Source of the DNA: Hydrurus foetidus
Lineage: Eukaryota
Assembly: GCA_900617105.1 (NCBI GenBank)
Contig: UYFQ01000380.1
Coordinates: 1 to 38,938 of the forward strand
Length of the DNA stretch: 38,938 nt
Reading direction: 5' to 3'
The notes beneath the pieces are model-generated. The model was not told where the DNA came from. It worked only from the letters and a program-made list of their open reading frames with translations, and made no database searches. The translations under genes and the position numbers were made by a program. Of this stretch, positions 1 to 38,938 are shown piece by piece; position 1 is the stretch's first letter; each line of letters opens with the position of its first letter.

Positions 1-3000
1 CACCTGCTCAAACTTGGGGTACTACACCGTCGACCGGTCCCTCTACCCCCTACTTTGGGGTCAGCCATGGGGTACGAAGACCAGTTTGTACTGAGCCGAT
101 TTTTTCTGAGGTATGATATGCATACATGAACTGAAATGTATCAGAACGACAATGTGTGAATCGTATCTGATGGTGTGTTCGCACCTGCTCAAACTTAGGG
201 TACTACACCGTCGACACCGGTCCCTCTACCCCCCTACTTTGGGGTCAGCCCTGGGGTACGAAGACCAGTTTGTACTGAGCCGATTTTTTCTGAGGTATGA
301 TATGCATACATGAACTGAAATGTATCAGAACGACAATGTGTTAATCGTATCTGATGGTGTGTTCGCACCTGCTCAAACTTAGGGTACTACACCGTCGATA
401 CCGGTCCCTCTACCCCCCTACTTTGGGGTCAGCCCTGGGGTACGAAGACCAGTTTGTACTGAGCCGATTTTTTCTGAGGTATGATATGCATACATGAACT
501 GAAATGTATCAGAACGACAATGTGTGAATCGTATCTGATGGTGTGTTCGCACCTGCTCAAACTTAGGGTACTACACCGTCGACACCGGTCCCTCTACCCC
601 CCTACTTTGGGGTCAGCCCTGGGGCACGAAGACCAGTTTGTACTGAGCCGATTTTTTCTGAGGTATGATATGCATACATGAACTGAAATGTATCAGAACG
701 ACAATGTGTGAATCGTATCTGATGGTGTGTTCGCACCTGCTCAAACTTAGGGTACTACACCGTCGACACCGGTCCCTCTACCCCCTACTTTGGGGTCAGC
801 CCTGGGGTACGAAGACCAGTTTGTACTGAGCCGATTTTTTCTGAGGTATGATATGCATACATGAACTGAAATGTATCAGAACGACAATGTGTGAATCGTA
901 TCTGATGGTGTGTTCGCACCTGCTCAAACTTAGGGTACTACACCGTCGACACCGGTCCCTCTACCCCCCTACTTTGGGGTCAGCCCTGGGGTACGAAGAC
1001 CAGTTTGTACTGAGCCGATTTTTTCTGAGGTATGATATACATACATGAACTGAAATGTATCAGAACGACAATGTGTGAATCGTATCTGATGGTGTGTTCG
1101 CACCTGCTCAAACTTAGGGTACTACACCGTCGACACCGGTCCCTCTACCCCCACTTTGGGGTCAGCCCTGGGGTACGAAGACCAGTTTGTACTGAGCCGA
1201 TTTTTTCTGAGGTATGATATGCATACATGAACTGAAATGTATCAGAACGACAATGTGTGAATCGTATCTGATGGTGTGTTCGCGCCTGCTCAAACTTAGG
1301 GTACTACACCGTCGACACCGGTCCCTCTACCCCCTACTTTGGGGTCAGCCCTGGGGTACGAAGACCAGTTTGTACTGAGCCGATTTTTTCTGAGGTATGA
1401 TATACATACATGAACTGAAATGTATCAGAACGACAATGTGTGAATCGTATCTGATGGTGTGTTCGCGCCTGCTCAAACTTAGGGTACTACACCGTCGACA
1501 CCGGTCCCTCTACCCCCTACTTTGGGGTCAGCCCTGGGGTACGAAGACCAGTTTGTACTGAGCCGATTTTTTCTGAGGTATGATATACATACATGAACTG
1601 AAATGTATCAGAACGACAATGTGTGAATCGTATCTGATGGTGTGTTCGCGCCTGCTCAAACTTAGGGTACTACACCGTCGACACCGGTCCCTCTACCCCC
1701 CTACTTTGGGGTCAGCCCTGGGGTACGAAGACCAGTTTGTACTGAGCCGATTTTTTCTGAGGTATGATATACATACATGAACTGAAATGTATCAGAACGA
1801 CAATGTGTGAATCGTATCTGATGGTGTGTTCGCGCCTGCTCAAACTTAGGGTACTACACCGTCGACACCGGTCCCTCTACCCCCCTACTTTGGGGTCAGC
1901 CCTGGGGTACGAAGACCAGTTTGTACTGAGCCGATTTTTTCTGAGGTATGATATACATACATGAACTGAAATGTATCAGAACGACAATGTGTTAATCGTA
2001 TCTGATGGTGTGTTCGCACCTGCTCAAACTTAGGGTACTACACCGTCGACACCGGTCCCTCTACCCCCTACTTTGGGGTCAGCCCTGGGGTTCGAAGACC
2101 AGTTTGTACTGAGCCGATTTTTTCTGAGGTATGATATACATACATGAACTGAAATGTATCAGAACGACAATGTGTGAATCGTATCTGATGGTGTGTTCGC
2201 ACCTGCTCAAACTTAGGGTACTACACCGTCGACACCGGTCCCTCTACCCCCCTACTTTGGGGTCAGCCCTGGGGTACGAAGACCAGTTTGTACTGAGCCG
2301 ATTTTTTCTGAGGTATGATATGCATACATGAACTGAAATGTGTCAGAACGACAATGTGTGAATCGTATCTGATGGTGTGTTCGCACCTGCTCAAACTTAG
2401 GGTACTACACCGTCGATACCGGTCCCTCTACCCTCCTACTTTGGGGTCAGCCCTGGGGTACGAAGACCAGTTTGTACTGAGCCGATTTTTTCTGAGGTAT
2501 GATATACATACATGAACTGAAATGTATCAGAACGACAATGTGTGAATCGTATCTGATGGTGTGTTCGCACCTGCTCAAACTTAGGGTACTACACCGTCGA
2601 ACCGGTCCCTCTACCCCCCTACTTTGGGGTCAGCCCTGGTGTACGAAGACCAGTTTGTACTGAGCCGATTTTTTCTGAGGTATGATATACATACATGAAC
2701 TGAAATGTATCAGAACGACAATGTGTGAATCGTATCTGATGGTGTGTTCGCACCTGCTCAAACTTAGGGTACTACACCGTCGACACCGGTCCCTCTACCC
2801 CCCTACTTTGGGGTCAGCCCTGGGGTACGAAGACCAGTTTGTACTGAGCGATTTTTTCTGAGGTATGATATGCATACATGAACTGAAATGTATCAGAACG
2901 ACAATGTGTGAATCGTATCTGATGGTGTGTTCGCACCTGCTCAAACTTAGGGTACTACACCGTCGACACCGGTCCCTCTACCCCCTACTTTGGGGTCAGC

Positions 3001-6000
3001 CCTGGGGTACGAAGACCAGTTTGTACTGAGCCGATTTTTTCTGAGGTATGATATGCATACATGAACTGAAATGCATCAGAACGACAATGTGTGAATCGTA
3101 TCTGATGGTGTGTTCGCACCTGCTCAAACTTAGGGTACTACACCGTCGACACCGGTCCCTCTACCCCCTACTTTGGGGTCAGCCCTGGGGTACGAAGACC
3201 AGTTTGTACTGAGCCGATTTTTTCTGAGGTATGATATGCATACATGAACTGAAATGTATCAGAACGACAATGTGTGAATCGTATCTGATGGTGTGTTCGC
3301 ACCTGCTCAAACTTAGGGTACTACACCGTCGACACCGGTCCCTCTACCCCCTACTTTGGGGTCAGCCCTGGGGTACGAAGACCAGTTTGTACTGAGCCGA
3401 TTTTTTCTGAGGTATGATATACATACATGAACTGAAATGTATCAGAACGACAATGTGTTAATCGTATCTGATGGTGTGTTCGCACCTGCTCAAACTTAGG
3501 GTACTACACCGTCGACACCGGTCCCTCTACCCCCTACTTTGGGGTCAGCCCTGGGGTACGAAGACCAGTTTGTACTGAGCCGATTTTTTCTGAGGTATGA
3601 TATGCATACATGAACTGAAATGTATCAGAACGACAATGTGTGAATCGTATCTGATGGTGTGTTCGCACCTGCTCAAACTTAGGGTACTACACCGTCGACA
3701 CCGGTCCCTCTACCCCCTACTTTGGGGTCAGCCCTGGGGTACGAAGACCAGTTTGTACTGAGCCGATTTTTTCTGAGGTATGATATACATACATGAACTG
3801 AAATGTATCAGAACGACAATGTGTGAATCGTATCTGATGGTGTGTTCGCACCTGCTCAAACTTAGGGTACTACACCGTCGACACCGGTCCCTCTACCCCC
3901 TACTTTGGGGTCAGCCCTGGGGTACGAAGACCAGTTTGTACTGAGCCGATTTTTTCTGAGGTATGATATGCATACATGAACTGAAATGTATCAGAACGAC
4001 AATGTGTGAATCGTATCTGATGGTGTGTTCGCACCTGCTCAAACTTAGGGTACTACACCGTCGATACCGGTCCCTCTACCCCCCTACTTTGGGGTCAGCC
4101 CTGGGGTACGAAGACCAGTTTGTACTGAGCCGATTTTTTCTGAGGTATGATATACATACATGAACTGAAATGTATCAGAACGACAATGTGTGAATCGTAT
4201 CTGATGGTGTGTTCGCACCTGCTCAAACTTAGGGTACTACACCGTCGACACCGGTCCCTCTACCCCCTACTTTGGGGTCAGCCCTGGGGTACGAAGACCA
4301 GTTTGTACTGAGCCGATTTTTTCTGAGAACATGATATATACATGAACTGAAATGTATCAGAACGACAATGTGTGAATCGTATCTGATGTGTTTCGCACCT
4401 GCTCAAACTTAGGGTACTACACCGTCGACACCGGTCCCTCTACCCCCTACTTTGGGGTCAGCCCTGGGGTACGAAGACCAGTTTGTACTGAGCTGATTTT
4501 TTCTGAGGTATGATATACATACATGAACTGAAATGTATCAGAACGACAATGTGTGAATCGTATCTGATGATGTGTTCGCACCTGCTCAAACTTAGGGTAC
4601 TACACCGTCGACACCGGTCCCTCTACCCCCTACTTTGGGGTCAGCCCTGGGGTACGAAGACCAGTTTGTACTGAGCCGATTTTTTCTGAGGTATGATATA
4701 CATACATGAACTGAAATGTATCAGAACGACAATGTGTGAATCGTATCTGATGATGTGTTCGCACCTGCTCAAACTTAGGGTACTACACCGTCGACACCGG
4801 TCCCTCTACCCCCCTACTTTGGGGTCAGCCCTGGGGTACGAAGACCAGTTTGTACTGAGCCGATTTTTTCTGAGGTATGATATACATACATGAACTGAAA
4901 TGTATCAGAACGACAATGTGTGAATCGTATCTGATGATGTGTTCGCACCTGCTCAAACTTAGGGTACTACACCGTCGACACCGGTCCCTCTACCCCCTAC
5001 TTTGGGGTCAGCCCTGGGGTACGAAGACCAGTTTGTACTGAGCCGATTTTTTCTGAGGTATGATATACATACATGAACTGAAATGTATCAGAACGACAAT
5101 GTGTGAATCGTATCTGATGATGTGTTCGCACCTGCTCAAACTTAGGGTACTACACCGTCGACACCGGTCCCTCTACCCCCTACTTTGGGGTCAGCCCTGG
5201 GGTACGAAGACCAGTTTGTACTGAGCCGATTTTTTCTGAGGTATGATATACATACATGAACTGAAATGTATCAGAACGACAATGTGTGAATCGTATCTGA
5301 TGGTGTGTTCGCACCTGCTCAAACTTAGGGTACTACACCGTCGACACCGGTCCCTCTACCCCCCTACTTTGGGGTCAGCCCTGGGGTACGAAGACCAGTT
5401 TGTACTGAGCTGATTTTTTCTGAGGTATGATATACATACATGAACTGAAATGTATCAGAACGACAATGTGTGAATCGTATCTGATGGTGTGTTCGCACCT
5501 GCTCAAACTTAGGGTACTACACCGTCGACACCGGTCCCTCTACCCCCTACTTTGGGGTCAGCCCTGGGGTACGAAGACCAGTTTGTACTGAGCTGATTTT
5601 TTCTGAGGTATGATATACATACATGAACTGAAATGTATCAGAACGACAATGTGTGAATCGTATCTGATGATGTGTTCGCACCTGCTCAAACTTAGGGTAC
5701 TACACCGTCGACACCGGTCCCTCTACCCCCTACTTTGGGGTCAGCCCTGGGGTACGAAGACCAGTTTGTACTGAGCTGATTTTTTCTGAGGTATGATATA
5801 CATACATGAACTGAAATGTATCAGAACGACAATGTGTGAATCGTATCTGATGGTGTGTTCGCACCTGCTCAAACTTAGGGTACTACACCGTCGACACCGG
5901 TCCCTCTACCCCCCTACTTTGGGGTCAGCCCTGGGGTACGAAGACCAGTTTGTACTGAGCTGATTTTTTCTGAGGTATGATATACATACATGAACTGAAA

Positions 6001-9000
6001 TGTATCAGAACGACAATGTGTGAATCGTATCTGATGATGTGTTCGCACCTGCTCAAACTTAGGGTACTACACCGTCGACACCGGTCCCTCTACCCCCTAC
6101 TTTGGGGTCAGCCCTGGGGTACGAAGACCAGTTTGTACTGAGCTGATTTTTTCTGAGGTATGATATACATACATGAACTGAAATGTATCAGAACGACAAT
6201 GTGTGAATCGTATCTGATGGTGTGTTCGCACCTGCTCAAACTTAGGGTACTACACCGTCGACACCGGTCCCTCTACCCCCCTACTTTGGGGTCAGCCCTG
6301 GGGTACGAAGACCAGTTTGTACTGAGCTGATTTTTTCTGAGGTATGATATACATACATGAACTGAAATGTATCAGAACGACAATGTGTGAATCGTATCTG
6401 ATGATGTGTTCGCACCTGCTCAAACTTAGGGTACTACACCGTCGACACCGGTCCCTCTACCCCCTACTTTGGGGTCAGCCCTGGGGTACGAAGACCAGTT
6501 TGTACTGAGCTGATTTTTTCTGAGGTATGATATACATACATGAACTGAAATGTATCAGAACGACAATGTGTGAATCGTATCTGATGGTGTGTTCGCACCT
6601 GCTCAAACTTAGGGTACTACACCGTCGACACCGGTCCCTCTACCCCCTACTTTGGGGTCAGCCCTGGGGTACGAAGACCAGTTTGTACTGAGCCGATTTT
6701 TTCTGAGGTATGATATACATACATGAACTGAAATGTATCAGAACGACAATGTGTGAATCGTATCTGATGGTGTGTTCGCACCTGCTCAAACTTAGGGTAC
6801 TACACCGTCGACACCGGTCCCTCTACCCCCTACTTTGGGGTCAGCCCTGGGGTACGAAGACCAGTTTGTACTGAGCCGATTTTTTCTGAGGTATGATATA
6901 CATACATGAACTGAAATGTATCAGAACGACAATGTGTGAATCGTATCTGATGGTGTGTTCGCACCTGCTCAAACTTAGGGTACTACACCGTCGACACCGG
7001 TCCCTCTACCCCCTACTTTGGGGTCAGCCCTGGGGTACGAAGACCAGTTTGTACTGAGCCGATTTTTTCTGAGGTATGATATACATACATGAACTGAAAT
7101 GTATCAGAACGACAATGTGTGAATCGTATCTGATGATGTGTTCGCACCTGCTCAAACTTAGGGTACTACACCGTCGACACCGGTCCCTCTACCCCCTACT
7201 TTGGGGTCAGCCCTGGGGTACGAAGACCAGTTTGTACTGAGCCGATTTTTTCTGAGGTATGATATACATACATGAACTGAAATGTATCAGAACGACAATG
7301 TGTGAATCGTATCTGATGGTGTGTTCGCACCTGCTCAAACTTAGGGTACTACACCGTCGACACCGGTCCCTCTACCCCCTACTTTGGGGTCAGCCCTGGG
7401 GTACGAAGACCAGTTTGTACTGAGCCGATTTTTTCTGAGGTATGATATGCATACATGAACTGAAATGTATCAGAACGACAATGTGTGAATCGTATCTGAT
7501 GGTGTGTTCGCACCTGCTCAAACTTAGGGTACTACACCGTCGACACCGGTCCCTCTACCCCCTACTTTGGGGTCAGCCCTGGGGTACGAAGACCAGTTTG
7601 TACTGAGCCGATTTTTTCTGAGGTATGATATACATACATGAACTGAAATGTATCAGAACGACAATGTGTGAATCGTATCTGATGGTGTGTTCGCACCTGC
7701 TCAAACTTAGGGTACTACACCGTCGACACCGGTCCCTCTACCCCCCTACTTTGGGGTCAGCCCTGGGGTACGAAGACCAGTTTGTACTGAGCTGATTTTT
7801 TCTGAGGTATGATATACATACATGAACTGAAATGTATCAGAACGACAATGTGTGAATCGTATCTGATGGTGTGTTCGCACCTGCTCAAACTTAGGGTACT
7901 ACACCGTCGACACCGGTCCCTCTACCCCCTACTTTGGGGTCAGCCCTGGGGTACGAAGACCAGTTTGTACTGAGCTGATTTTTTCTGAGGTATGATATAC
8001 ATACATGAACTGAAATGTATCAGAACGACAATGTGTGAATCGTATCTGATGATGTGTTCGCACCTGCTCAAACTTAGGGTACTACACCGTCGACACCGGT
8101 CCCTCTACCCCCTACTTTGGGGTCAGCCCTGGGGTACGAAGACCAGTTTGTACTGAGCTGATTTTTTCTGAGGTATGATATACATACATGAACTGAAATG
8201 TATCAGAACGACAATGTGTGAATCGTATCTGATGATGTGTTCGCACCTGCTCAAACTTAGGGTACTACACCGTCGACACCGGTCCCTCTACCCCCTACTT
8301 TGGGGTCAGCCCTGGGGTACGAAGACCAGTTTGTACTGAGCTGATTTTTTCTGAGGTATGATATACATACATGAACTGAAATGTATCAGAACGACAATGT
8401 GTGAATCGTATCTGATGATGTGTTCGCACCTGCTCAAACTTAGGGTACTACACCGTCGACACCGGTCCCTCTACCCCCCTACTTTGGGGTCAGCCCTGGG
8501 GTACGAAGACCAGTTTGTACTGAGCTGATTTTTTCTGAGGTATGATATACATACATGAACTGAAATGTATCAGAACGACAATGTGTGAATCGTATCTGAT
8601 GGTGTGTTCGCACCTGCTCAAACTTAGGGTACTACACCGTCGACACCGGTCCCTCTACCCCCTACTTTGGGGTCAGCCCTGGGGTACGAAGACCAGTTTG
8701 TACTGAGCTGATTTTTTCTGAGGTATGATATACATACATGAACTGAAATGTATCAGAACGACAATGTGTGAATCGTATCTGATGATGTGTTCGCACCTGC
8801 TCAAACTTAGGGTACTACACCGTCGACACCGGTCCCTCTACCCCCTACTTTGGGGTCAGCCCTGGGGTACGAAGACCAGTTTGTACTGAGCTGATTTTTT
8901 CTGAGGTATGATATACATACATGAACTGAAATGTATCAGAACGACAATGTGTGAATCGTATCTGATGATGTGTTCGCACCTGCTCAAACTTAGGGTACTA

Positions 9001-11210: not shown

Positions 11211-11266
11211 TCGCTTTATTAAAACTTAATTTTTTTTACTTTTCTGATAATTTTTTCTTTTTTTAG

Positions 11267-13874
11267 ATTTACTATTGTAAAGGAACTACACTTGCGGCCT
11301 TGAAGTATTGGCATTTTGAGGAGTGTCAGAAAAATTTAAGACTGTTAGTTAATGATGAACACCGATTATCACATTTTTGCTCGGATTTATGCGATTTATC
11401 GATGAATGTCAGTATACAAATTCAAGAAAGAACATTTCTTGGATTTATATTACCAAAAAAGAAGAAACGATTATTTTCAAAAATTGAAAATCGTATTTCG
11501 ATACCAACAGCGTTGTTATTCTCGAAGCATGGCGTGTCAACTGAGTATTGGATTCAATCATACGAGTGTTTCAAAGCTAAGAATAATCTCCAAACTAAAG
11601 ATCTAGCTTGCAAATGTTGCAAACTGTTCTGGAGAAGTTTCAGAGGATTGTCAGCGAAGGAAACAGTCTTACTAAGTGATCACAATAAAATCATAAAAAA
11701 AAAATCAAAAGTTATAGAGGATCTCAAAAAAGAAAATTATGATTTAAATGCAGAAATTGAAAAGCATTCGAAGGAGGCTAACAAAAGATTTCATAATTTA
11801 AGAAAAAAAGTGTCTTACTGGCGGTTGCAATGCAAAAATTTGAAAAATGCAGTTAGTCAATGGCGTAAAGTTGAGCATGTACGGAAAGGTTTTATAGATG
11901 TAAGTGAAGATGAATCAGAAATATGGTACAAATTCTATGTTTTCATTGACGAAATTATCAGTAGAGAGCACGCCGGAGATCCTGAAAAAATAAGTTTACA
12001 TAAAGAATTAGTTCGATCAGAAACCTTTCAGCTCGGTAAATTTAACAAATCTGGTAATAAGAGAGGCATAAGAACTACCAAGTTATCATCCCGTATTCTT
12101 AATTATGCATTGGGATTGGCGCATAATTTAGGAAAAACTAATTACGAGAAAGAGGCTGCACTGCGTTCCTTACCCTGTTGGTCGACATTGACAAAGTAAG
12201 TTGGTAACAATTCAATATTATCAATGTATGTTTATTTTTCAAATTGAACGCGAATTTATCTAATTACGTATTATCATCATTTTTCGCAGGTACAAATCAA
12301 ATTTCAGTTGCGAGGTTGGAGTCCAATTAAATAATTTGTTAATGGCTTCTCGTTCAGCGGGAGAAAACAGAAACATGAGTAAAGAACACTCTGCTTTACT
12401 AATAGATGAAATGATGATAACTAATGGTATTATGTATTCAGTTACTAGAAGTAAAGTATTTGGATTAGCGGAAATCTCTACACACGGAATACAAAACGAG
12501 ATTTATCAGGATTTTTATGGCATGAATTCCAATGAAATACAAAATGAAAAAATGACAAGTATGAAATATTTCGATGAAACTTCACAAAAATTAAAAGGTC
12601 ATATGGCTACAGGATTAACTCAGGTGATGATACTTATAGAATGAAACATAAGATTTGATTCAAATTATTATATAACTGTTTTCTTTAAAATAATGTAGGT
12701 CAGAATGGTAAGCTTGGCAGGTTGTCAGCTCGACTACTGCGTCTATCAATGTTTTAATACATCTATGACGTCATTGGATATACACTCCATTTTGCGAGAA
12801 GTTTTGATAGCAACAGCAGCAATGCATTTTGATATCATTGCAATAATAGGCGATGGAGCGCAGTGTAATCGTCAATACCAAAATAGATACTCTAATTCAG
12901 GGGGTTGCAACAATTTGCATATGGTTCATCCTATAACATTAAAACCGATTTATTACATATCAGATCCGTCTCATGTTATAATAAAGATAGTGTCGAGCCT
13001 ATCGAGCAGAAATAGAAATATTTTCAAAAAAGTAGAAAATGAAGATAGGAGAATTTCACTATCTTTAATGTTTGAATTGTGGATGTCTTTCAACGACAAC
13101 TCTGGGCTCAATAGGTTCAAAAGTTTTAAGACAATAGACTTCGTTAAAAACTCATTCCAAGCGATGAGGGTAGGGCCGTGCATTAAAGTTCTTGGTCCGC
13201 AAATGATAGAAATGATAGATTTGGCATTGCTTTACAAAACAGAATACGAAAAATTTAAAAATGAAGAAAAAAATAATGGTAAAATAAATCCATATGAATT
13301 CTACAAAAATTCAGAAATTTATTCAGGATGGAGAGAAGTTTGTGTATCCTTTTCAAATTTATTCCTTATTCTAAACTCAACAGAAAAAAGATTAAACACA
13401 ACAAATTATTCCGAAAATTATAATTACTTAATAAAATTCAATCAATGGTTTAGTAGTTGGAAGAATGAGTGCATAGAGAGGAGAAGACAAGAATTGCCAG
13501 TCAAGCATACAGCATATGAAGCTATGACTGGATTTTTTACAGCAGAAGCAGCAGATGATTGCCAATCGATGATTCAAGGTATAATTTCTATTACGAAATA
13601 TTACTGCAACACCAATAACAATAGTGGAGAGTTCTTTTGTTTTCTTCCTCGACGAATTAGCCAAGATTTAGTTGAGAATGCCTTTGCAAGAATGAGAGTC
13701 GCTATTGGACACGCTAGACTTGACCACTCCACAACATTTAATGCGTGTACTCAGGTAAACATGCTTAAAGAAGTAAAAGTGAGTGAGCGCGCAACCAAAA
13801 AGAGAAATGCTGCTGGTGCCAATAATGGTGTTAAAGAATTATCAGTAAGAATTATCAGTAGCGTCAATCATTAA
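11267..13874 (+). CDS. P-element/THAP9-like DDE transposase of element 1; exons 11267-12195, 12290-12623, 12699-13874 (~812 aa, 5' start not seen)
   Basis: Motifs LLIDEM (D1), IIGDGA (D2), YISDPSH (DxxH), MRVG and RRISQDLVENAFARMR (E) match P-superfamily transposases. GT-AG introns join the three ORFs in frame. The first exon begins at a polypyrimidine/TAG acceptor (11266) with no ATG there. No THAP domain is visible; the N-terminus has CxG...SxxC...CxxC. Confidence 0.9.
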
Positions 13875-15368
13875 GTGAGAGGAAAATGATGCGTCAAAAG
13901 TGTTTTCTTCATTCTCCATTCTTATTTCATCGGTACGTAAACTTTCCTCTTTTTCCTCGTCTTCATTTTCACCTATGTCTTCTACCCCCTCTTGTCCAAT
14001 TAAATTATTTAATATGATTATGTGTGCAGGTATAGTAGGCTCAATTGCAAATTCATCATTTGTCTTACGGATGTGCACAGAACAGTTTGATGTATGTTTA
14101 GTATACCAATTAAGTCGAACAAATTTTTTTCCACACATACAAGTTAATCGAGATAAGTCACTATTGTTTTTACTTGAACTTGATTTTGATACTTTATCAT
14201 TTTCTTCAAATGGTTCTTCATCGCTACAAGACTTAGATGAGAACGATTTTGCACTAAATGAAAGTAAATTTGTTCTTATTCCCGATGCACCAGTCTTGCT
14301 GAGTAGAGCGTTCGATAATCTTAGTTGATAAATATCTTTTGCATGAGTTCGAATAAAGCCATTTATGATAAATTTGTATAAAAATGATATCGGTGTTTCA
14401 TCTGCTGCGAGGTCCATACCTTCCTTCACTTGATCTTGTAACATAAAACATGATTCGATGAATGCCAATTGAACATTTTTTGATTTTAGTATAACTTCAT
14501 GAACTCGCTTGACGGGCTCATATGCATTGAATAGAATTAAAACATCAGTCGATAAAGACTGCATCCAAATAGCTTGGACTAACTTTATGAATACAAAATT
14601 GTCTTCTTTAGCATAGTATAATCCTTCAGAATGCTCACGAAATAGAATACACTGCGCAGGTAGATTGTAGGATAAAGCTGTGGCTGCATTAGCGTGGCGT
14701 GAAAATTCATAATATTTTTGAAATGTTTCCTTGTACTCACTTCGTAATGTATTCAAGTGAAATAGATTAAATATACGATGACCACATAAATAACCCGTAA
14801 TATCATAAATCTTGTGAAGCATAGTTTCTGAGTAAACATAAACTTTATCAGAGGACCTTTCAGTAATATAATTATCGATATCCAGCCCCCTATTAAAGTG
14901 CTGCCATTTCCAGAAATTTTTGTACACAAAATCCTCCAAGTAGCTAAAAATCAAGTTGCTGTGTTCACTAACGCTTCGATCCACTTCTTCATTTTGAGGC
15001 TCATCGAACAATGATCGAATAATCTGGAAGCAGGAAAACTTTCTTCCACAGACTTCCCGTGCTTTGTTGCGGTCACTTTCAAAAATTTTCATCATTATCT
15101 TGCCCGACTTCATCCTTTTATCGATGTCGTCTACTGTCGACTTGACGCACCTACCGTAGGCATCATAGTAACTGACTACTAATTCGTAGAGCAAATTCTG
15201 CAAGAAAAGGCAAGATGCATCGTCTGTCAAGAACTGAAGAAAAAAAGCTGTGTGAACGCTCTCACGCCCAAGGAAAAATATTTCACTCTCGAAGAGATTT
15301 TCGATAGTTCTCTCGTAGATACCTCCAGGTTGCAAGAATAAGTCGAGGTTGAAAGCCGGCAAAGTCAT
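13842..15368 (-). CDS. Accessory protein of element 1 (~508 aa from ATG 15368), unknown function, C-terminal C2HC zinc-finger-like motif and acidic tail
   Basis: Long intronless ORF, clearly homologous to 24011-25480 (shared KIYDITGYLCG, HSEGLY, LSTDVLILFN, LLSKTGASGIRT). Motif CMCGKKFVRLNWYTKHTSNC. The start was chosen by alignment with the paralogue; the ORF is open back to 15473. Confidence 0.88.
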   Translation of the reverse strand: MTLPAFNLDLFLQPGGIYERTIENLFESEIFFLGRESVHTAFFLQFLTDDASCLFLQNLLYELVVSYYDAYGRCVKSTVDDIDKRMKSGKIMMKIFESDRNKAREVCGRKFSCFQIIRSLFDEPQNEEVDRSVSEHSNLIFSYLEDFVYKNFWKWQHFNRGLDIDNYITERSSDKVYVYSETMLHKIYDITGYLCGHRIFNLFHLNTLRSEYKETFQKYYEFSRHANAATALSYNLPAQCILFREHSEGLYYAKEDNFVFIKLVQAIWMQSLSTDVLILFNAYEPVKRVHEVILKSKNVQLAFIESCFMLQDQVKEGMDLAADETPISFLYKFIINGFIRTHAKDIYQLRLSNALLSKTGASGIRTNLLSFSAKSFSSKSCSDEEPFEENDKVSKSSSSKNNSDLSRLTCMCGKKFVRLNWYTKHTSNCSVHIRKTNDEFAIEPTIPAHIIILNNLIGQEGVEDIGENEDEEKEESLRTDEIRMENEENTFDASFSSHLMIDATDNSY

Positions 15369-15534
15369 TGCAATAGAATGGAGAATGCTTGGTTGTGTCG
15401 TGTTCGCAACACCGTTCGCTGAAGTAAAAGTTGAACTGAGATCGGAGATGAGTGAACATCCAAGTTGGATCACCGCTCACCGCTTTTGGGTTTTTCATTT
15501 TTTGGAAAAATAGGCGAGGTGAGGATTCCGCTTG

Positions 15535-15541
15535 GTGGAAG
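15535..15541 (+). other. Left 7-bp target-site duplication (GTGGAAG) of element 2
   Basis: Identical to 25679-25685; both copies abut the TIRs exactly. Confidence 0.9.
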
Positions 15542-15603
15542 CAAGGGGCTATAAAAGGAGAGGGGACGGTTTCACTGGTGGGCCCACTCAAAAAAATTCT
15601 CAC
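15542..15603 (+). repeat. Left TIR of element 2
   Basis: caaggggctataaaaggagaggggacggtttcactggtgggcccactcaaaaaaattctcac matches the reverse complement of 25618-25678 (caagggggtattaaaggagaggggacggtttcaccggtggatcccgctaaaaaaaactcac). Confidence 0.9.
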
Positions 15604-16614
15604 AACCGTCTCACCCAAGTTTGAAATACCAAGTTAATTATGGGTGATCGATGTCACCATCATATACATATTAACCAGTTTGTCACGCACGACAACATAA
15701 CAATGGGTTTACCAGCTGGGATTTCAGCAACGGTACCAAGTCACTAGTATCCAGCGCTGCTGCACAGAGGTATCGCTTTTTGAAGCCTTGCAAAATCTAT
15801 TCGATGCTTTCATCACTCCCAGATGTCAGCTGAAAAAATAAAAATTCTTGCCCAACAAAATTATGGGCGCAAATTTTGCGCAATTTGATGAGGCTATCCA
15901 CCAATGATTTTGCCGAAGTTTGCGCCCATATAAATAAAAATTGAGTAACTTATAGCATTTTCCACATTTGTCACGCCACAAAAACTTCTGCAGCATGCTC
16001 TCTGATTCTAATGAAGCTCTTTACCCTTCTCGAACAGGCTAATGACCAGCTTTGCTGAAATGTTGGGGATGTTTCAAAAATGCTTGAACGCATATTTAAT
16101 TCGTAACCCCCAAAGTGGGACAGCTGTGTCCGGTCAGCCGGGAATGGTGAAACTTCTGCATTTACTGTATCCATTTTATCAAGGTAAAACGACATGCCCA
16201 TCACCAAATTAGTTGAATTGTGTCTCTGTGAAATATGATTGAACTGTTTCCGTGAAACATGATTGTCATGTCGGTCATGATCACATCAGTTGGAAAAGAG
16301 ATATGATTTTTGAATCCTATCAAATTTCGGTTTTTGTCACACTAACTGGTGTCCAATCATTTAATCTGAAACAAACTAGGTGCAACGCTCGTAAAGTTTT
16401 CCAAAAAACTGAAGCAACTGTATCGCAAATCAAGGATCAAAATGATTTTTGACTTTTCGTCAGTGTCATTATACTCGAGTAGAAATCCGGGTGAGGTTGA
16501 GGTCTCATTCCGGTATGGGGTACTACTGGACTTAAAAGAAATTAAAATTTCTGACTATCCTCCTGAAGAAAACTTTTTCAAAAATGTAATCCAATTTTTC
16601 GTTGCTTATTATCA

Positions 16615-19600: not shown

Positions 19601-21072
19601 TTTATTTTTGTTTCCTATCATATAGAGAATGTTTCTCATATTGCAATTATTTGTTTGATCAATATTATACGGATTATTGGGTATTTTCGTATTCTAAAGT
19701 ACACCTTTTTAGATGATATTTCTGACTCTCTTTATTTACATTTTAAATCGTGATAACAGACATCTTCTGTTATCAATGGACTGGATACACCTTATACTCC
19801 ATTGCATTCAAGCGAGCATGTAAGTATGCATTTATTTCTTTTTATTCGGGTCATACCGGTATCTACAGTATTGATACATAATGTTGTCATTTTTAGTATG
19901 ATAAGAATCGTGAAATTAAAAATATTTTTTATTTTTTATTTTGTTTCCTATCATATAGAGAATGTTTCTCATATTGCAATTATTTGTTTGATCAATATTA
20001 TACGGATTATTGGGTATTTTCTTATTCTAAAGTACACCTTTTTAGATGATATTTCTGACTCTCTTTATTTACATTTTAAATCGTGATAACAGACATCTTC
20101 TGTTATCAATGGACTGGATACACCTTACACTCCATTGCATTCAAGCGAGCATGTAAGTATGCATTTATTTCTTTTTATTCGGGTCATACCGGTATCTACA
20201 GTATTGATACATAATGTTGTCATTTTTAGTATGATAAGAATCGTGAAATTAAAATATTTTTATTTTTTTATTTTCGTATCCTATCATATAGAGAATGTTT
20301 CTCATATTGCAATTATTTGTTTGATCAATATTATACGGATTATTGGGTATTTTCGTATTCTAAAGTACACCTTTTTAGATGATATTTCTGACTCTCTTTA
20401 TTTACATTTTAAATCGTGATAACAGACATCTTCTGTTATCAATGGACTGGATACACCTTACACTCCATTGCATTCAAGCGAGCATGTAAGTATGCATTTA
20501 TTTCTTTTTATTCGGGTCATACCGGTATCTACAGTATTGATACATAATGTTGTCATTTTTAGTATGATAAGAATCGTGAAATTAAAAATATTTTTTATTT
20601 TTTTTATTTTCGTATCCTATCATATAGAGAATGTTTCTCATATTGCAATTATTTGTTTGATCAATATTATACGGATTATTGGGTATTTTCTTATTCTAAA
20701 GTACACCTTTTTAGATGATATTTCTGACTCTCTTTATTTACATTTTAAATCGTGATAACAGACATCTTCTGTTATCAATGGACTGGATACACCTTATACT
20801 CCATTGCATTCAAGCGAGCATGTAAGTATGCATTTATTTCTTTTTATTCGGGTCATACCGGTATCTACAGTATTGATACATAATGTTGTCATTTTTAGTA
20901 TGATAAGAATCGTGAAATTAAAAATATTTTTATTTTTTATTTTCGTATCCTATCATATAGAGAATGTTTCTCATATTGCAATTATTTGTTTGATCAATAT
21001 TATACGGATTATTGGGTATTTTCGTATTCTAAAGTACACCTTTTTAGATGATATTTCTGACTCTCTTTATTT
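16615..21072. repeat. Tandem array B, AT-rich ~334-bp monomer, about 13.3 copies; internal to element 2
   Basis: agagaatgtttctcatattgcaatt... recurs every 333-336 bp, with variation mostly in a T-rich homopolymer stretch. The array ends ~25 bp before the transposase ORF. Confidence 0.99.
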
Positions 21073-21096
21073 TCACCTCGTATCACGTCGTATCAG

Positions 21097-23950
21097 ATGA
21101 TTTCTGATGACTTTGACGATCATTTGAATGGTATCTGCATGACATCCTCAAGTTATCCGTGTTATGGGGTGACATCTATTCAATTGAATTCTGACTTGTT
21201 AGTTCAGAGCCAACAAAATTATAATGACCTATTACAAGATAATATAAATTATTCGAGGTACTGCCCAGTCTTATTGTCTTTAAAAAATCAATCGAAAAGC
21301 GTGATTCGAATACACGGACTTATGGGATTTTTTTATCCTCGTAAAAATAAAGAACTAGATGCATCAAATGAGCATGTGCGAAAACCATCATCATTCTACT
21401 ACTCAATGAATAGAGGCAAGAATGAGTTTGCTGTCCAATCATACAATTGTGCAAAAAATACTAACGTTTCTAATGACAAATATAAACCATGCTTAGACTG
21501 TAAAAATAATTGGAGATCATTTAGAAATAAGACTGCAGTTAAATACTTAAAAGAGTCAAGTCATAAGAAAATATTAAAAAATGAAGAAAAAAAATACATA
21601 TCTCTTAACGACGAATTTCAGGAGCATATCAAAAGCAATAAATTAAAATGGATATCTATAAACAAAAAAATGAATAAACTTTTCAAACGTGTTTCGTATT
21701 GGAAAAATAAATTTAAAAATCTGGAAGCGGCTGTCTCACAGTGGCGCAAAATAGAGAAAGAAAGAAATGGGTTCATAACAGTCAATGAAGATGAATCATC
21801 TCTATGGACGAAATTTTACGAGTTTATAGATAAGCAAATCGATAAAGAACATCACGCAAATGAGGAAATGAGAGAGTTGCATAAAGAATTGGTTAGAACT
21901 GAAATTTCGACGTTAGGTAAATTCAATACCTGTAATGATAAAAGGGGCATAAGAACAACAAAAATATCCTCCCGAATATTAAACTATTCAATGTCATTAG
22001 CAAATAGCATGGGAAAAGCTAGATATGAAAATGAAGCTACACTGCGTTCTCTCCCAACATGGGATACAATATCTAGGTAAGATATTTTTCTCAATTATCT
22101 CCATCATGAAGAGAAACGAAATTTGTATCAAAAATTGTTATCTTCAAAAGTCCTATTTTAAATTTACAGGCACAAATCACTGATGACTTGTGAAGTAGGA
22201 GTTCAATGGAAAAATTTGATCCTTGCATCCAAACAAGCAAAAGAAGATGATGTAAGAAACAAAGACTATTGTGCCCTTTTAATGGACGAAATGATCATAA
22301 CAAATGGAATAATGTATTCAGTGTCACAGCAAAAAGTTTACGGACTCGCAGAAATGCCAAGTCATGGCATAAACAACGAAATTTATCATGATTTTTACAG
22401 AATGAATTGCAATGAAACCGTTGTGGAAGATATGTCGCGAATGACGTACTTTGACGAAACATCCAACAAATTAAGCGGTCACACAGCAACTGGCTTGACA
22501 CAGGTATTCATATTACGATCATACAATTACTGTTGCTGTACAATCATCTAACGCGAATCATTACTAATTATCATATTAGGTTCGCCTAGTGAGTCTTGCA
22601 GGAAAGCAACTTGACTACTGTGTATATCAATGTTTCACATCAACAATGAGTACCATGGATATTTATTCCGTAATATCAAAAAGTCTATTAGCTACATCAA
22701 TGTTACGGTTTAATATTATAGCAATAATAGGAGACGGAGCGCAATGTAATAGACAATTTCAAAACAGATTTTTTGATAAAGTCATAAAAAAAGACGAAAT
22801 TATATACGATCACCTAATGCCTCATAGAGTAACTGAAAAACCAATATTCTATATATCTGATCCTTCCCACATGATCAAAAAAATAGTTTCGAGTCTATCA
22901 AGTAACAATAGAAATATTAAAAAAGTTGTTGAAGGAAATATTCGTAATCTATCTCTTTCTTCCATGATGGTGTTGTGGATGTCATTTAATAATCATTCTG
23001 GTTTAAATGAGCATAATGATTTTAAAATGACAGATTTCGTAAAAAATAGTTTCCAGGCTATTCGAGTCGGACCGTGCATAAAGGTATGCATTGAATATAT
23101 TATTTTTTACTTCATCGATGATTTAAATAATTTCTAAATCACGTAAACTAAAATGTAGGTACTTGGACCGAAAATGATAGCTATGATTGACAGAGCTTTA
23201 CTTTATAAACAAAGATATGCCGAACATAAAGAATCATCTCCATTTGTGACAAATCCGTATGAAAAATTCAAAAATGCTGAACAATATATGGAATGGAGAG
23301 AAGTATGTATTTGGTTCACAGGACTATTCGAAATTCTAAATTCAACTCAAAATCGGTTAGGCATAGGTGAAAACAGCCATAATCTAAAATTCCTAAAAAA
23401 ATTCTTGGAGTGGTTTGAAATCTGGAAATGTGAATGCATTGAAAGACAACTAAAAATATTACCTGTAAATTCTACATCATATCAAAGAATGACCGGTTTT
23501 TTTACGAGTGAAGCATCTGACGACTGTACGACTATGATTAAGGCAATGATACAAATGACTGAATTCTACTGTTGTAGACAAACTTCTAATACGCCACTGT
23601 ATTTCTTACCGAGAAGAATAAGTCAGGATTTAGTTGAGAATGGGTTTTCTAAAATAAGGCTAGCGATTGGACATGGTAGACTTGACCATAGAACAACTGC
23701 AGCTGCTTGCGTGAAGGTTAACTTAGTTAAAGAAATTAACACGAAGAATAGGAATGTGAAGAAAAGAAACGCGAGTGGTTGTCAATTGGATATAAATGTC
23801 CCAGAAAATAAAATACAAGACAGCCCCTGTACTGAGTATGCGACACTTCTAATTGATGAGGCCAGAAAAAGAAAGAGTATCTATTTTAAGAAGGTAAATC
23901 CTTATATATGGACTGAAACGAATGGTCTAAAACATATGAATTTTTTTTGA
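21097..23950 (+). CDS. P-element/THAP9-like DDE transposase of element 2; exons 21097-22076, 22170-22503, 22580-23083, 23159-23950 (869 aa if it starts at ATG 21097)
   Basis: Motifs LLMDEM, IIGDGA, YISDPSH and RRISQDLVENGFSKIR. Three GT-AG introns give a continuous frame colinear with the element 1 transposase. ATG 21097 is directly preceded by CAG, so an upstream exon is possible. Confidence 0.92.
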
Positions 23951-24010
23951 GTCAATGCTACTAGAAATCTATTTAATTACATACATTATTAGATGTAAAA
24001 TAAAATTAAG

Positions 24011-25480
24011 CTACTCTTCGTCCACAATACAAGACACAAATTTTGAATCAAAAATGTTCTCTTTCTCCTGTAAAAATATTTCAAAATCATTCATAGCTTG
24101 TATATCGCTATCACATGAAAAGTCACCCAAATCTTGAAGACCTTCATTTTCAAGTAGATTATCTAAAATAACCGACGAATTATCAACAGGAATATGATCA
24201 GACGATGTATTATTTGTATTAATGTATATGGAACATGATATGATATGCCTCGCTAGCCACCCATTCCCAGTGAATTCTCTTCCGCAGGGACAGGAGTAAT
24301 TGTCAATAGTGACAGCTTGTGCTGTTGTAGTGTTACTAGTTGTTACATTTTTTTTCTTTTGCGCCTCTGCACTTAAAGTTAATAAAGCTGTTCTTATTCC
24401 TGATGCACCTGTTTTACTTAAGAGAACATTTGATAGTCGATGTTGATATATGTCTTTGGAATACACTCTTATGAAACCTTGTACTAAAAATTGATATAAG
24501 TAGCATATTGGAGATTTATCAACAGCGAGATTTACATCAACATCAAATATGTTAGGCAACATGTAACAAGATTGTTTGAATAATTTTTGAACTGTTGTTG
24601 AATTTAGTATCAACTTATGAACGAGTTTTACGGGTTCAGATGAGTTAAATAGTATAAGAACATCAGTTGATAAACATTGCATAAATATTGCCTGCATAAT
24701 TTTTATGAAATTGAAGTTTCCTTCACGTGCAAAATAAAGGCCCTCAGAATGCTGACGAAATAGCAAAAATTGAGCTGGTAACTTATCTTCAATTGCCATG
24801 CAACCATTTGGATATCTAGAATGAGTGTAGTATTCATTAAATAAGTATCGATATTCGGACTTGAGCCTATTAAAGTGCATTAAATTGTACAGTCGCGCTC
24901 CACATAAATATCCAGTTATGTCATAAATTTTATCGAGCATAATGGGTGAAAATTTGTAGTCCTCATCATTAGGTCTCTCCCTTATGAAATTTGAAACATG
25001 CAGGCCCTTAGATGAGTGTAACCACTTCCAATAATTTTCATATAGATACTGCTCGATAAAACCGAATAATAAATTGACGTCCTCTTTCAAATTGACCTCA
25101 AAAGTACCGTCTTCTTCAGCACAAAGATGCTCAATAACCCCTGATAAACAGGAAAACTTTTGCCGGTATTCCTCAACCAACCCTATTCTGCTAGTCTCCA
25201 GTTTGGTGATCATAAGCTTCCCGGCACGGTGCCTTTTTTCGAGTGATCCGCTTGTGGCGGATACATGCTCACTGTAAAGACTGTGATAACCGCAGACCAA
25301 ACCAAAGAGGACAGTAATAATTTCCTGCGCATTTAATGGACTCGCCATGCACTTTAAAAAAAATTGGGTGAAAATTAGCTCTCTCTGCAAGAAAAATTCA
25401 TCACAATTATACAGCTGATCGATGGTGCATTCAAATATCCCGCCGTCGCATAGAAATTCATTTGCATCTAAACTTATCAT
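24011..25480 (-). CDS. Accessory protein of element 2 (~489 aa from ATG 25480), unknown function, C2HC zinc-finger-like motif
   Basis: Intronless ORF homologous to 13842-15368 over its whole length; motif CPCGREFTGNGWLARHIISC; acidic C-terminus. An alternative ATG lies at 25540. Confidence 0.88.
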   Translation of the reverse strand: MISLDANEFLCDGGIFECTIDQLYNCDEFFLQRELIFTQFFLKCMASPLNAQEIITVLFGLVCGYHSLYSEHVSATSGSLEKRHRAGKLMITKLETSRIGLVEEYRQKFSCLSGVIEHLCAEEDGTFEVNLKEDVNLLFGFIEQYLYENYWKWLHSSKGLHVSNFIRERPNDEDYKFSPIMLDKIYDITGYLCGARLYNLMHFNRLKSEYRYLFNEYYTHSRYPNGCMAIEDKLPAQFLLFRQHSEGLYFAREGNFNFIKIMQAIFMQCLSTDVLILFNSSEPVKLVHKLILNSTTVQKLFKQSCYMLPNIFDVDVNLAVDKSPICYLYQFLVQGFIRVYSKDIYQHRLSNVLLSKTGASGIRTALLTLSAEAQKKKNVTTSNTTTAQAVTIDNYSCPCGREFTGNGWLARHIISCSIYINTNNTSSDHIPVDNSSVILDNLLENEGLQDLGDFSCDSDIQAMNDFEIFLQEKENIFDSKFVSCIVDEE

Positions 25481-25617
25481 GACGAAGAATAAGTAGATAC
25501 GGAGCATGCATGTCCTTTGCACAATAGTGATAGAGGTCATGGTGTACGAGGGTTCATCATATCACAGTCCCAAAGGGATTTGGTAGTTCAGGTTTTTGAA
25601 TTATGAGTGAAAGGGAG

Positions 25618-25678
25618 GTGAGTTTTTTTTAGCGGGATCCACCGGTGAAACCGTCCCCTCTCCTTTAATACCCCCTTG
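25618..25678 (-). repeat. Right TIR of element 2
   Basis: Inverted match to 15542-15603; ends ...cccccttg and is followed by GTGGAAG. Confidence 0.9.
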
Positions 25679-25685
25679 GTGGAAG
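25679..25685 (+). other. Right 7-bp target-site duplication (GTGGAAG) of element 2
   Basis: Identical to 15535-15541. Confidence 0.9.
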
Positions 25686-25715
25686 AGTGCCCCCTCTCTC
25701 TTTTGTACCCCCTTG
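25686..25715 (-). repeat. Outer 30 bp of the right TIR of element 1
   Basis: The reverse complement caagggggtacaaaagagagagggggcact is the same terminal motif as the element 2 TIRs and the TIR at 32770. Confidence 0.82.
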
Positions 25716-25990
25716 CTTGGGGGATGAAATTTTGCAAAACCGTTGTTTTCAACGGATAAAATCGATTCGGATCTGAGAACCGGTTTCAGATTTCACATCG
25801 AAAATGAAATCTATCAGTTGAGAGTTGAGTCTGGCAGGCAGTCTGGCAGTCTGGCAGTATATTCAGTCACATGTTATCACGCCTCTTCTGGCATTCTCAG
25901 ATCAGCGTGTGAATCAACAAAGCTAGCAATTCTTCGAGCAAAAGTTGTAGGCAACTGACTGGTCAGCTCCACAACCGTCAATTGTCGAAA

Positions 25991-30829: not shown

Positions 30830-31120
30830 TCAATGAGTCGCAGCAACATTTGTATGCGCGAGGAAATTGCATCTAATTGTTGGAAGAGGCAATTAGCCGG
30901 GTACACCGGACACTCCGATGCTATTCCCACCCATATAGCCGCCATCCGATGCCTCGACTGCATAACATCCAATACACCTGCATGATGTATTCTAGTCGCA
31001 CCACAGCAGACCTCAATACTATAGTCCGTGATGCGCTCTGCATCTACCACAAACAATTATTACAGTGCAGCATATAGATGGTGAACGGTTTGATCTCAGG
31101 TCTGAGGTCCATGCGGTCTC

Positions 31121-32168
31121 ACCTTCCGCCATCTTCTGCTATTTTTATGGTGTCACTGATTTGATGTTGATTTCGTACGGCTATCATTTTAACGATGAGA
31201 AACCAATCGAATTCCACGTGATCTGAAAGCGAAATGTAATGCCTCGCAGTACCTCTTTCGTTCAGGAAGCCACTCTACCATAGTTAGAATGCCTTCTTCT
31301 TTTTTCTTTTCTCACTCCTCTCGCAAACTTCATCCTGTGTAAACGATTCCATCCCGTCCCATACATGCCATGTATTGCTCCTTAGCAAGACAGCAAATAC
31401 CTTTTACGTTTTAAGTGATTTAAGTGATTCTTTAATTTCTTGTGGCCGGCGGTAGCCTACTGATATGTGATATGTGTCTACTTTGACAACTACATTAAAA
31501 TACAGTGAAACGATCTCCACTAAACTGCAGTCAGTTTTGCATCGCGAGGACTTGAGAATGGCTGTATATTTCGTATTTTACAAATATATGACGTTATAAT
31601 GGAGATCGCATCGCACCGTCCACGATGTATTGTCGAAGAACGCTTCCCTTCTGTGGAACACATCGATAAGTATTAGTTCCTGGCTGACAAAATTCAAACT
31701 CAACACTGACAAATCTAGGCAAAGTTTCTTCAGGCTGATGTTACGAAGAAAAACGATGAAAATTCAGTGTCGAATCCATAAAAATTAAGAATCGATCGTA
31801 CAATTTGGTACAGATAAGAATCAGAACCGTAATCTTGAGCCGCACAACACCAACATTGTACGGATACTGTCGACCGTGAAGATTGAAGAAATAAGTGTCT
31901 GAAAGGACCCAGTTTTTGTGATGTAGAACACAATACCGTCGAATGCCCCATCTTTTTCTTGTTATACAGCGGTGTGTGGTAGTAGAGTCAATTTGTTAAA
32001 CATCTCAACTTCATGGACGACATAGCTAACATCAGCAGAGCAAAACTTCACTGATACTTACCCGATAAAGTCAATTTCTTTTGGCTTCGAAGCTGCAGTG
32101 ACCATTCCTTTAGTATCTGCATTGTTGACTTCTGACGGGCCAGAACGCTTCAGGTAATTTCGAATTCC
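31121..32168 (-). CDS. Possible multi-exon gene of unknown function (fragmentary)
   Basis: Minus-strand segments with AG/GT boundaries and open frames: ~32168-32063 (IRNYLKRSGPSEVNNADTKGMVTAASKPKEIDFIG), ~31381-31252 (SNTWHVWDGMESFTQDEVCERSEKKKKEEGILTMVEWLPERK) and ~31155-31123 (DTIKIAEDGG, phase-compatible with the previous one). No family recognised. Confidence 0.3.
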
Positions 32169-32369
32169 TGAAACGTTGCTGATGGTGTGACTTTCAATGT
32201 TTGAGCCTCGTTAAACTCAGTCCCCATCAAATTGAATTCCGACAATTTGTGAGATGCTTGTAAACGATGTGGAATCTACGAATCTGAAACGCTCTCTAGA
32301 GCGGCACCACTATTCTGACTTAAAATTTTTGCAGCGTTGCAGAACCATAATAGTTTGAGTTTTTGCTTA

Positions 32370-38868: not shown

Positions 38869-38938
38869 CGTGGTGTTTTGTCCACCAGAACCGTATCGCG
38901 GTTTGTTGGTGGACCTCGATTATAGTTCCCCATGATAG

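Follow-up and report, generated by a model that had tools for sequence, protein, structure and literature searches.

Two nested P-superfamily transposons of Hydrurus foetidus with a transposase that is probably divided between two convergent genes

In the 38,938-bp stretch of Hydrurus foetidus DNA that was analysed here (the window), we found two nested and diverged cut-and-paste transposons of the P superfamily, A and B. Their transposase is probably divided between two convergent genes, one of which would supply the C-terminal domain in trans. Both elements show the same order, in which a tandem array is followed by a + strand DDE transposase gene and then by a convergent - strand gene, and their sizes range from 10 to more than 25 kb. 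The features are as follows.

1-11208: tandem array of A with at least 61 copies (61.2) of a 183-bp monomer, 98% matches, continuing past the window
11267..13874, + strand: transposase gene of A, inferred exons 11267-12195, 12290-12623 and 12699-13874
13834..13860, + strand: 13-bp duplication at the joint where this A copy has lost about 200 bp (transposase tail and intergenic gap)
13842..15368, - strand: second gene of A, 508 aa, with a core like the P C-terminal domain (fold inferred from the B homolog), a CxC..H..C finger and an acidic tail
15440..15541: subterminal region at the right of A, with an approximate inner limit, the last 7 bp being the left duplication copy of B
15535-15541 and 25679..25685 (+ strand): left and right copies of the 7-bp target-site duplication of B
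15542-25678: the whole of element B, bounded by inverted ends of 55 nt and flanked by a target duplication of 7 bp
15542..15596, + strand: left terminal inverted repeat of B, 55 nt
15597..16614: unique 5' region of B, without a match to either protein family; contigs of sequencing runs X5 and X10 cross from it into the array
16615-21072: tandem array of B, 334-bp monomer, 13.3 copies, 98% matches
21097..23950, + strand: transposase gene of B, modelled at 869 aa from the inferred exons 21097-22076, 22170-22503, 22580-23083 and 23159-23950
24011..25480, - strand: second gene of B, a single exon coding for 489 aa and converging on the transposase gene, 60-bp gap between the stops
24233..24292, - strand: zinc-finger-like motif C-x-C-x12-H-x3-C, varying across the family
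24419..24958, - strand: fold-matched region of the second gene of B, model residues 178-357 against 6p5a_B 617-733
25624..25678, - strand: right terminal inverted repeat of B, 55 nt
25686..25715, - strand: outer 30 bp of the right terminus of A, moved 10.1 kb away by B

When we compared the terminal repeats, the duplication and the ends of the two elements, B was found to sit within the right end of A. The inverted repeats of B are 84% complementary over 55 nt, with 28 of the first 30 nt of the left end agreeing with the right end, and the ends read CAAG..CTTG, starting CAAGGGG. The left end of A lies outside the window, and terminal repeats and a target duplication are observable for B; the search for them that had been proposed with the original prediction yielded the 55-nt inverted ends and 7-bp duplication of B and, within the window, the right end alone of A. 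The architecture proposed for two elements was recovered in that both contain the array, the transposase gene and the convergent gene, but they are nested rather than side by side and one of them is cut by the window edge. By parallel with B, the array of A would be placed between the ends of A. A tblastn search of positions 25716-38938 found no third gene-bearing copy, and an Rfam search of positions 10600-26000 gave no match. We drew copy estimates from the contigs of sequencing runs, in which depth is a rough guide. Run X5 contains the empty site, with an unbroken end of A whose loose end lies at 15541. An unbroken end of A is also present in run X1 (loose end at 25675), where the ends of B carry other flanks. 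Together with the 7-bp duplication, the empty site in X5 and the other insertions in X1 speak for the mobility of B.

The transposase genes were modelled with GT..AG introns of 75-94 nt, which were inferred from the restored reading frame and the A/B alignment. In 6% of two RNA runs, made from a single sample that bears this species label but may be another strain, there were no intron-spanning reads and almost no reads on either gene, and the depth on the neighbouring host gene was 30-150; this scarcity counts against the split reading given below. Transposase B matched PF21787 with 28.7 bits against a cut-off of 24.6, and transposase A reached 20.5, under the cut-off. The DEM, DGA, DPSH and QDLVEN motifs line up between A and B, indicating a DDE enzyme with DxxH, and a D(2)H signature is described for P-type DDE RNase H transposases (PMC10045372, PMC4168063). 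The fold was predicted from the last exon of one close homolog, P0054, and this model matched residues 259-565 of P transposase (6pe2_A/6p5a_A, Z 19.0/18.8), compared with Z 6.6 for Hermes and 6.3 for RAG1. With Foldseek the same match had an E value of 1.5e-6, and there were 2 matches in all at E<=0.001. P transposases are characterised by GTP-dependent cleavage that leaves 17-nt staggered ends, and the helical insertion region also aligns structurally with that of P transposase. Assignment to the P superfamily, which had been made from the DNA alone, thus agrees with both the PF21787 match and the predicted fold, which place the enzyme nearer to P/THAP9 than to hAT, Transib/RAG, MuDR or Kolobok. 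The THAP domain, described as confined to animals (PMC7776569), had no match in the scanned exons, and an upstream exon may be absent from the models.

The length of the transposase is central to the split reading. The catalytic-E motif was present in 38 of 45 transposase homologs, and these chains end 75-124 residues past it. A YxxGY motif, from which the link between the second gene and the P C-terminal domain had been anticipated ahead of the fold result described below, was absent from those homologs. These alignments show that the + strand gene, as modelled, ends too early to contain the P C-terminal domain. In the window, the A transposase additionally misses about 48 C-terminal codons as well as the intergenic gap, and where the window has 7 letters at the deletion joint, the principal contig of the A family in X1 shows 211. 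Both genes had been described as open in both copies, which holds for the B pair and for the second gene of A, while the A transposase is without its last codons.

The two elements are deeply diverged. The transposases are 53% identical over 801 codons, and their 4-fold sites are identical at 0.35, compared with 0.31 expected at random. The second genes share 41.5% amino acid identity over 487 codons, with identities of 0.53/0.66/0.39 at codon positions 1/2/3 and a pS of 0.80 against a pN of 0.40. Codon comparison thus confirms the deep divergence and a pattern of purifying selection on both genes; the view that the second gene is a selected and long-standing part of the element is supported.

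The best structural match of the predicted core of the second protein was to Drosophila P transposase, in its C-terminal domain (Z 10.1, rmsd 2.7, 117/118 residues), where the value is to be read with the reservation that a Z below about 13 may reflect a common arrangement of helical bundles. This was the sole chain at Z>=8 among 48,161 representative chains, and the runner-up had Z 6.9. Since the 117 target positions are aligned across 180 model positions, the domain of the second protein has insertions. The match is all-helical with 9% identity, which leaves room for the alternative that it is a chance likeness of helical bundles, that the second gene was captured as an accessory without relation to the enzyme and that the transposase works without a C-terminal domain. 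Foldseek searches of the PDB and viral libraries returned nothing at E<=0.001, profiles of the second-gene family gave E>0.4 throughout against PDB sequences, and the members scanned had no convincing Pfam match. Neighbours of the core in the ESM Atlas were DUF6589 clusters at 0.88, under the 0.9 line, which we regard as a lead only. However, the best of the 48,161 chains is a domain from just that enzyme family to which the adjacent gene belongs, and the match has nearly full coverage, stands 3 Z units over the rest and was anticipated beforehand, so that we consider chance likeness very unlikely.

The fold-matched region is also the best-conserved part of the second protein, with a mean conservation of 0.71 in the core (residues 171-385) compared with 0.40 in the finger region. 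The finger pattern was found in 41 of 55 close homologs but in 1 of 11 distant ones, a few of which may be incomplete. The zinc finger is an add-on that varies from homolog to homolog, while the core lies elsewhere, and the label of a zinc-finger accessory gene, under which this gene had been introduced, is therefore not retained. Beyond the core, the protein has about 175 extra N-terminal residues (helical), the finger and the acidic tail.

Based on these observations, we suggest that the + strand gene keeps the catalytic DDE part of the enzyme, while the - strand gene would carry the predicted C-terminal domain and supply it in trans. The two proteins may co-assemble on the element ends, and this reassembly would be needed for the element to move. 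By analogy with the P C-terminal domain, the second protein could bridge the catalytic and insertion domains and grip transposon and target DNA (PMC7776569). Target DNA is among the contacts described for the P C-terminal domain (PMC7776569), so the earlier idea of a role in targeting comes close to our best reading. The N-terminal helical part, the finger and the acidic tail might be assembly or regulatory add-ons.

In VANDAL elements, the accessory protein VANC binds tandem motifs of its own element and removes silencing marks. Along such lines, the second gene could be a descendant of the P C-terminal domain that turned into a DNA-binding regulator, which represses the element or shields it from silencing through the array or the ends. 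The finger in 41/55 close homologs and the extra domains are in line with a regulator, and so are internally deleted copies in run contigs that keep the second gene and the array and have lost the catalytic core (joints 21463-23326 and 11203-13281). In addition, algal transposons are described to bear opposite-strand accessory genes that are proposed to modify their own DNA (PMC12477816). On the contrary, the partner transposase is without exactly this domain, so that something must supply it, and the finger pattern is present in 1/11 distant homologs. The 183-bp and 334-bp monomers are unrelated (best local match 13/15 nt, E 0.36) and have no common motif although the proteins are 41% alike, which speaks against the VANC-like binding of the arrays suggested in the original prediction. 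CpG observed/expected is 0.75 and 1.12 in the arrays, on either side of the 0.86 found in the host region, and thus gives no consistent sign of methylation. We consider a regulator improbable and prefer the split transposase.

When we searched for relatives, the second-gene family had 139 profile matches, the longest being <=694 aa, and all of these relatives stand alone. No fused form of transposase and second gene was scored among 5,907 longer candidates, which is a weak test, and 189 second-gene homologs and 45 transposase homologs gave no cross-matches (best E 0.21). In the lists of 53 and 45 homologs, four longest contigs were of the same size (jitter P 0.0011), all of them >=4 kb, which 0 of 20,000 jitters reached; moreover, the identities of 7 transposase/second-gene pairs correlate (Mantel r 0.74, p 0.009). 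From matching contig sizes alone, we infer that the two genes are linked in other organisms. Two scans of metagenome contigs gave 66 and 199 pattern matches for homolog loci, with 0 confirmed, and viral contigs gave 3, with 0 confirmed. We tentatively raise the possibility of an old, uncatalogued bipartite P lineage in freshwater protists, including chrysophytes, with an obligatory separate target-capture subunit encoded tail-to-tail with the catalytic gene and a giant family-specific 5' array as a regular part. Such a lineage may have arrived at a RAG1/RAG2-like logic by splitting one enzyme, or may represent an ancestral state that was later fused in animals.

The arrays were examined in their own right. 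Coding arrays were rejected, because the array of A, which contains 184-bp variants, has no open frame of 100 aa, and the frames of the B monomer reach 109-124 aa at most, are low in GC and are broken by indels. An assembly artefact was rejected on the monomer variants and on joints in independent runs: head-to-tail joints were seen in runs X1 and X5 for A and in runs X1 and X10 for B, and array junctions and joints turned up again in environmental samples that were sequenced independently, in runs from two other studies. This recurrence supports the arrays as features of their families rather than an accident of one locus. In those runs the depth of the B array is about 10-30 times the gene depth.

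The arrays could be required parts of the elements, for example as multiple transposase-loading sites or as a long intron throttling transposase expression, in which case the array would characterise the clade no less than the split does; this possibility concerns the array alone and is compatible with a split transposase. In both families, which diverged deeply, an array stands at the same position, although the arrays themselves are unrelated, and they recur in other runs as described above. Furthermore, the transposase A model opens at a splice-acceptor-like site with its first in-frame ATG at codon 46, and sequence conserved with B extends upstream of this ATG (a score reached by 3/5,000 shuffles), so an upstream exon would lie in or beyond the array, and the array of A is probably located within an intron. 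However, the arrangement is seen in two families only, the monomers are unconserved and copy number differs several-fold. In Galileo, a P-superfamily element, an internal segment is reported to have multiplied in place to as many as 82 copies (PMC13553610), and tandem arrays borne by transposable elements are described as common (PMC9659126). We therefore regard required arrays, and array function in general, as rather unlikely; most likely, the arrays are family-specific satellites that were amplified in place 5' of the transposase and carried along as tolerated cargo.

No two-gene or split P element appeared by title or abstract opening in the literature searched, and Repbase, Dfam or supplements could hold one. 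So far the P transposase has been regarded as one chain of six domains, and what its C-terminal domain does is known from one cryo-EM structure only. If true, a natural split would make this role testable by two-gene complementation, would mean that a eukaryotic transposase is divisible into separately regulated subunits and would assign a function to a family of proteins that lacks annotation (139 profile matches). It would also raise the question of whether the split or the fused state is ancestral, and would point towards a transposon tool with separate switches for cutting and for target capture. P elements of 10 to more than 25 kb act here as satellite carriers in protists.

Compared with known systems, the elements share with Drosophila P (6P5A/6PE2) the RNase H DDE core with a helical insertion (predicted, Z 19), DxxH, short inverted ends, a target duplication of 7-8 bp (7 bp here) and the fold of the C-terminal domain (predicted, Z 10.1) (PMC7776569). 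While Drosophila P is described with six domains in one chain (PMC7776569), the C-terminal domain is predicted here in a separate opposite-strand gene, and the elements here are far larger, with kilobase-scale arrays. Because the C-terminal-domain fold is predicted in the convergent gene, the single-gene layout with this domain in the same chain does not apply here, and we do not file the elements under the canonical animal P, Galileo or THAP9 type. Galileo has in common a P-type transposase, a 7-bp target duplication, nested P-family elements and an internal array amplified in place (CDSTR177, up to 82 copies), but is described with long foldback ends, one THAP-bearing transposase and an array reported for one species (PMC4168063, PMC13553610). 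The elements here have short ends, two genes and an array at the same place in both families.

Target duplications of Kolobok elements are TTAA. Kolobok0 with KolX likewise combines a DxxH-type DDE transposase with a second protein, while its ends are 5'-RR..YY-3' (PMC9587614), compared with CAAG..CTTG and a 7-bp duplication here. KolX has a P2X7 ballast fold (PMC9587614), while the best match of our second protein is the P C-terminal domain, and the Kolobok analogy drawn earlier is reduced to layout alone. No P2X7 ballast-fold chain was among the 50 structural matches listed for the second protein, and identity with Kolobok/KolX was rejected on ends, duplication and best-matching fold. In the two-gene DNA transposons PIF/Harbinger, ProtoRAG and VANDAL/VANC, the second protein works with or for the transposase, and RAG1L and RAG2L of ProtoRAG lie tail-to-tail in the same layout as here. 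Their second proteins have unrelated folds (Myb/SANT, kelch-PHD and VANC, respectively), whereas the second protein described here resembles, by its predicted fold, a piece of the family's own transposase.

The two P-superfamily elements, A and B, are nested, and their main features are listed below together with the neighbouring host gene.

Features of the nested elements and their flank
1-11208: array of A, 183-bp monomer, 61.2 copies, 98% homogeneous; the window starts inside it
15542-25678: element B, with 55-nt inverted ends and identical 7 bp on either side
16615-21072: array of B, 334-bp monomer, 13.3 copies, 98% homogeneous
~25800-30800 (end approximate), + strand: host anoctamin (TMEM16) gene, spliced and expressed, beginning ~100-200 bp past the right end of A

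After each array, a + strand gene in pieces is followed by a convergent - strand ORF, the second gene. When B was excised in silico, an unbroken right end of A finishing at 25715 was restored, and thus B is inserted 30 bp inside the right terminus of A. The end of A without B is also present in X5, a sequencing run of another study, and run X1 contains an A-type end without B as well as B ends joined to other flanks. By X1 depth, a rough measure (~170-270 over B versus 119 over the flank, and ~460-590 over the genes of A), both are low-copy families, each with an internally deleted form that has lost the catalytic core and kept the array and the second gene. The window holds a defective copy of A: a 13-bp duplication marks the point where the transposase breaks off, ~48 codons short and directly against the second gene, and at the joint the X1 family contig has 211 letters where the window has 7. 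X1 contig depth over the element ends at 15382-15579 and 25585-25789 is 20-50 times single copy, which suggests many short non-autonomous relatives with common ends. A third end of the same kind lies at 32770-32799 (25 of 30 nt as in the right end of A). Neither gene has a match beyond it, and the window contains no right end for it; it likely represents a non-autonomous or interrupted A-type element.

The + strand genes contain inferred GT..AG introns of 75-94 nt, two at positions common to A and B; once these introns are removed, each gene reads through in one frame, 812 aa in A and 869 aa in B. The P-superfamily placement in the original prediction was supported by a match to PF21787, by the DDE and DxxH motifs known from the P group (PMC10045372 and PMC4168063), and by the predicted fold. 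When the last exon of P0054, an intact homolog with 93% identity, was modelled from a 38-row alignment (pLDDT 68), Drosophila P transposase was the sole match at E<=0.001, and the model covered its residues 259-565 with a Z of 19, compared with 6.6 for Hermes. Beyond the aligned part lie ~80-90 poorly predicted residues. The catalytic-E motif occurs in 38 of 45 transposase homologs, and since the chains end 75-124 residues past it, the + gene is too short to include the C-terminal domain (CTD) of P transposase, which takes up 117 residues.

Of 4,000 candidates, 53 proved to be close homologs of the second gene, and its profile matched 139 of 1.84 billion representatives; Pfam gave nothing convincing among the members scanned. 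Its protein was modelled from a 49-row alignment (pLDDT 77), with which Foldseek returned no match. In a full structural alignment against 48,161 representative chains, the model matched one chain at a Z of at least 8, namely the P transposase CTD (6p5a_B, residues 617-733; Z 10.1, rmsd 2.7, model residues 178-357 aligned with 117 of 118), and the runner-up reached 6.9. The CTD reading had been proposed from a sequence motif ahead of this result. The match is not proof, because it is helical and only 9% identical. The matching region is the best-conserved part of the protein (0.71 versus ~0.40 elsewhere), and the matched fold is the domain absent from the neighbouring enzyme. A loosely tethered domain working across subunits would plausibly be a good candidate for splitting off. 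The zinc finger originally ascribed to this gene is present in 41 of 55 close homologs, while its pattern matches just 1 of 11 distant ones.

Linkage of the two genes elsewhere is indirect: when each homolog is listed with the length of its longest contig, 4 of these lengths coincide exactly between the two lists (53 and 45 homologs; P 0.0011, jitter), and 3 more such coincidences occur among members of 10 clusters chosen partly for that reason. A correlation (r 0.74, p 0.009) was also obtained for the identities across 7 pairs, of which 2 are real and 5 inferred. These comparisons point to co-inheritance of the genes, without bearing on contact between the proteins. Distant second-gene homologs (~17-26% identity, 378-671 aa) stand alone, one distant homolog is named from an Ochromonadaceae alga, and no fused transposase-CTD form appeared in the homolog searches, one of which was weak and in which gene calls on contigs break at introns. 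We consider it most likely that a P transposase has been split into two convergent genes, with putative contact between the partners.

The transposases of A and B share 53% identity with near-random 4-fold sites, and the second genes share 41.5% with third codon positions conserved least (pS 0.80, pN 0.40); both genes are under long-term purifying selection. The sources in which element B occurs include freshwater, sediment, biofilm and air metagenomes. In ~6% of two poly(A) runs (X22 and X23), both made from a single sample labelled as the same species, B had essentially no reads, with one stray pair in X23, and A had 13 partial reads in X22, several on monomers; the host gene beside B showed a depth of 30-150. 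The elements look silent in this sample, which may be another strain. The spliced, expressed anoctamin gene identifies the host as an intron-bearing eukaryote, and second alleles of it occur in ~25-30% of the RNA reads. Farther along, a 228-bp near-perfect palindrome at 32366-32593 (114-nt arms, 96%, no loop, TTA-like 3-bp flanks) resembles a PIF/Harbinger-type MITE. A Gypsy, chromovirus-like LTR retrotransposon occupies 34050-38938 on the - strand and exits the window; it encodes RT, RNase H, integrase and a chromodomain, in frames broken in places.

Head-to-tail monomer joints recur in other runs (A in X1 and X5, B in X1 and X10, the last also of another study), X5 and X10 contigs pass from the 5' region of B into its array, and in both runs the A monomer is entered from the same unique sequence. 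Depth ratios, although rough, suggest ~6-30 monomers per B copy, and ~14 (X5) to 130-170 (X1) per gene copy of A. Both arrays are therefore stable features of their families. Since coding similarity of A to B begins before the first ATG (a score attained by 3 of 5,000 shuffles), following a polypyrimidine-AG, an upstream exon of A would lie in or beyond the array. Along 1-11208, diagnostic monomer variants are clustered: one group is confined to the first 4 kb and a second to 4.4-9.5 kb, while some alternate. Local unequal exchange would produce such a distribution. At 11073, 16780 and 16818 both monomers join other unique sequence in X1, X5 or X10, and further elements or loci may carry these arrays. 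The monomers, known from two families only, are unrelated in sequence, have no common motif when compared, and show no common pattern of CpG ratios. Of the proposal that array and second gene are selected, functional parts, the second gene is supported by its purifying selection, and the arrays are most likely carried cargo of putative function.

Identity with Kolobok0 was rejected, because its second protein, KolX, has a ballast fold (PMC9587614, in part). Giant algal transposons with opposite-strand accessory genes are known in other superfamilies (PMC12477816, accessible text). A two-gene P element is not mentioned in the available portions of PMC5751038, PMC6431247, PMC9659126 and PMC10824691, nor was one found in literature searches judged by title and opening of the abstract. 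Galileo has an internal array amplified in place to up to 82 copies (PMC13553610), a precedent for those of A and B. The broad P-superfamily features were found wherever testable; however, animal P, Galileo and THAP9 carry the transposase in a single chain, which A and B do not. The feature is real, and within the already known P superfamily its two-gene form, most likely a split one, is a new variant.
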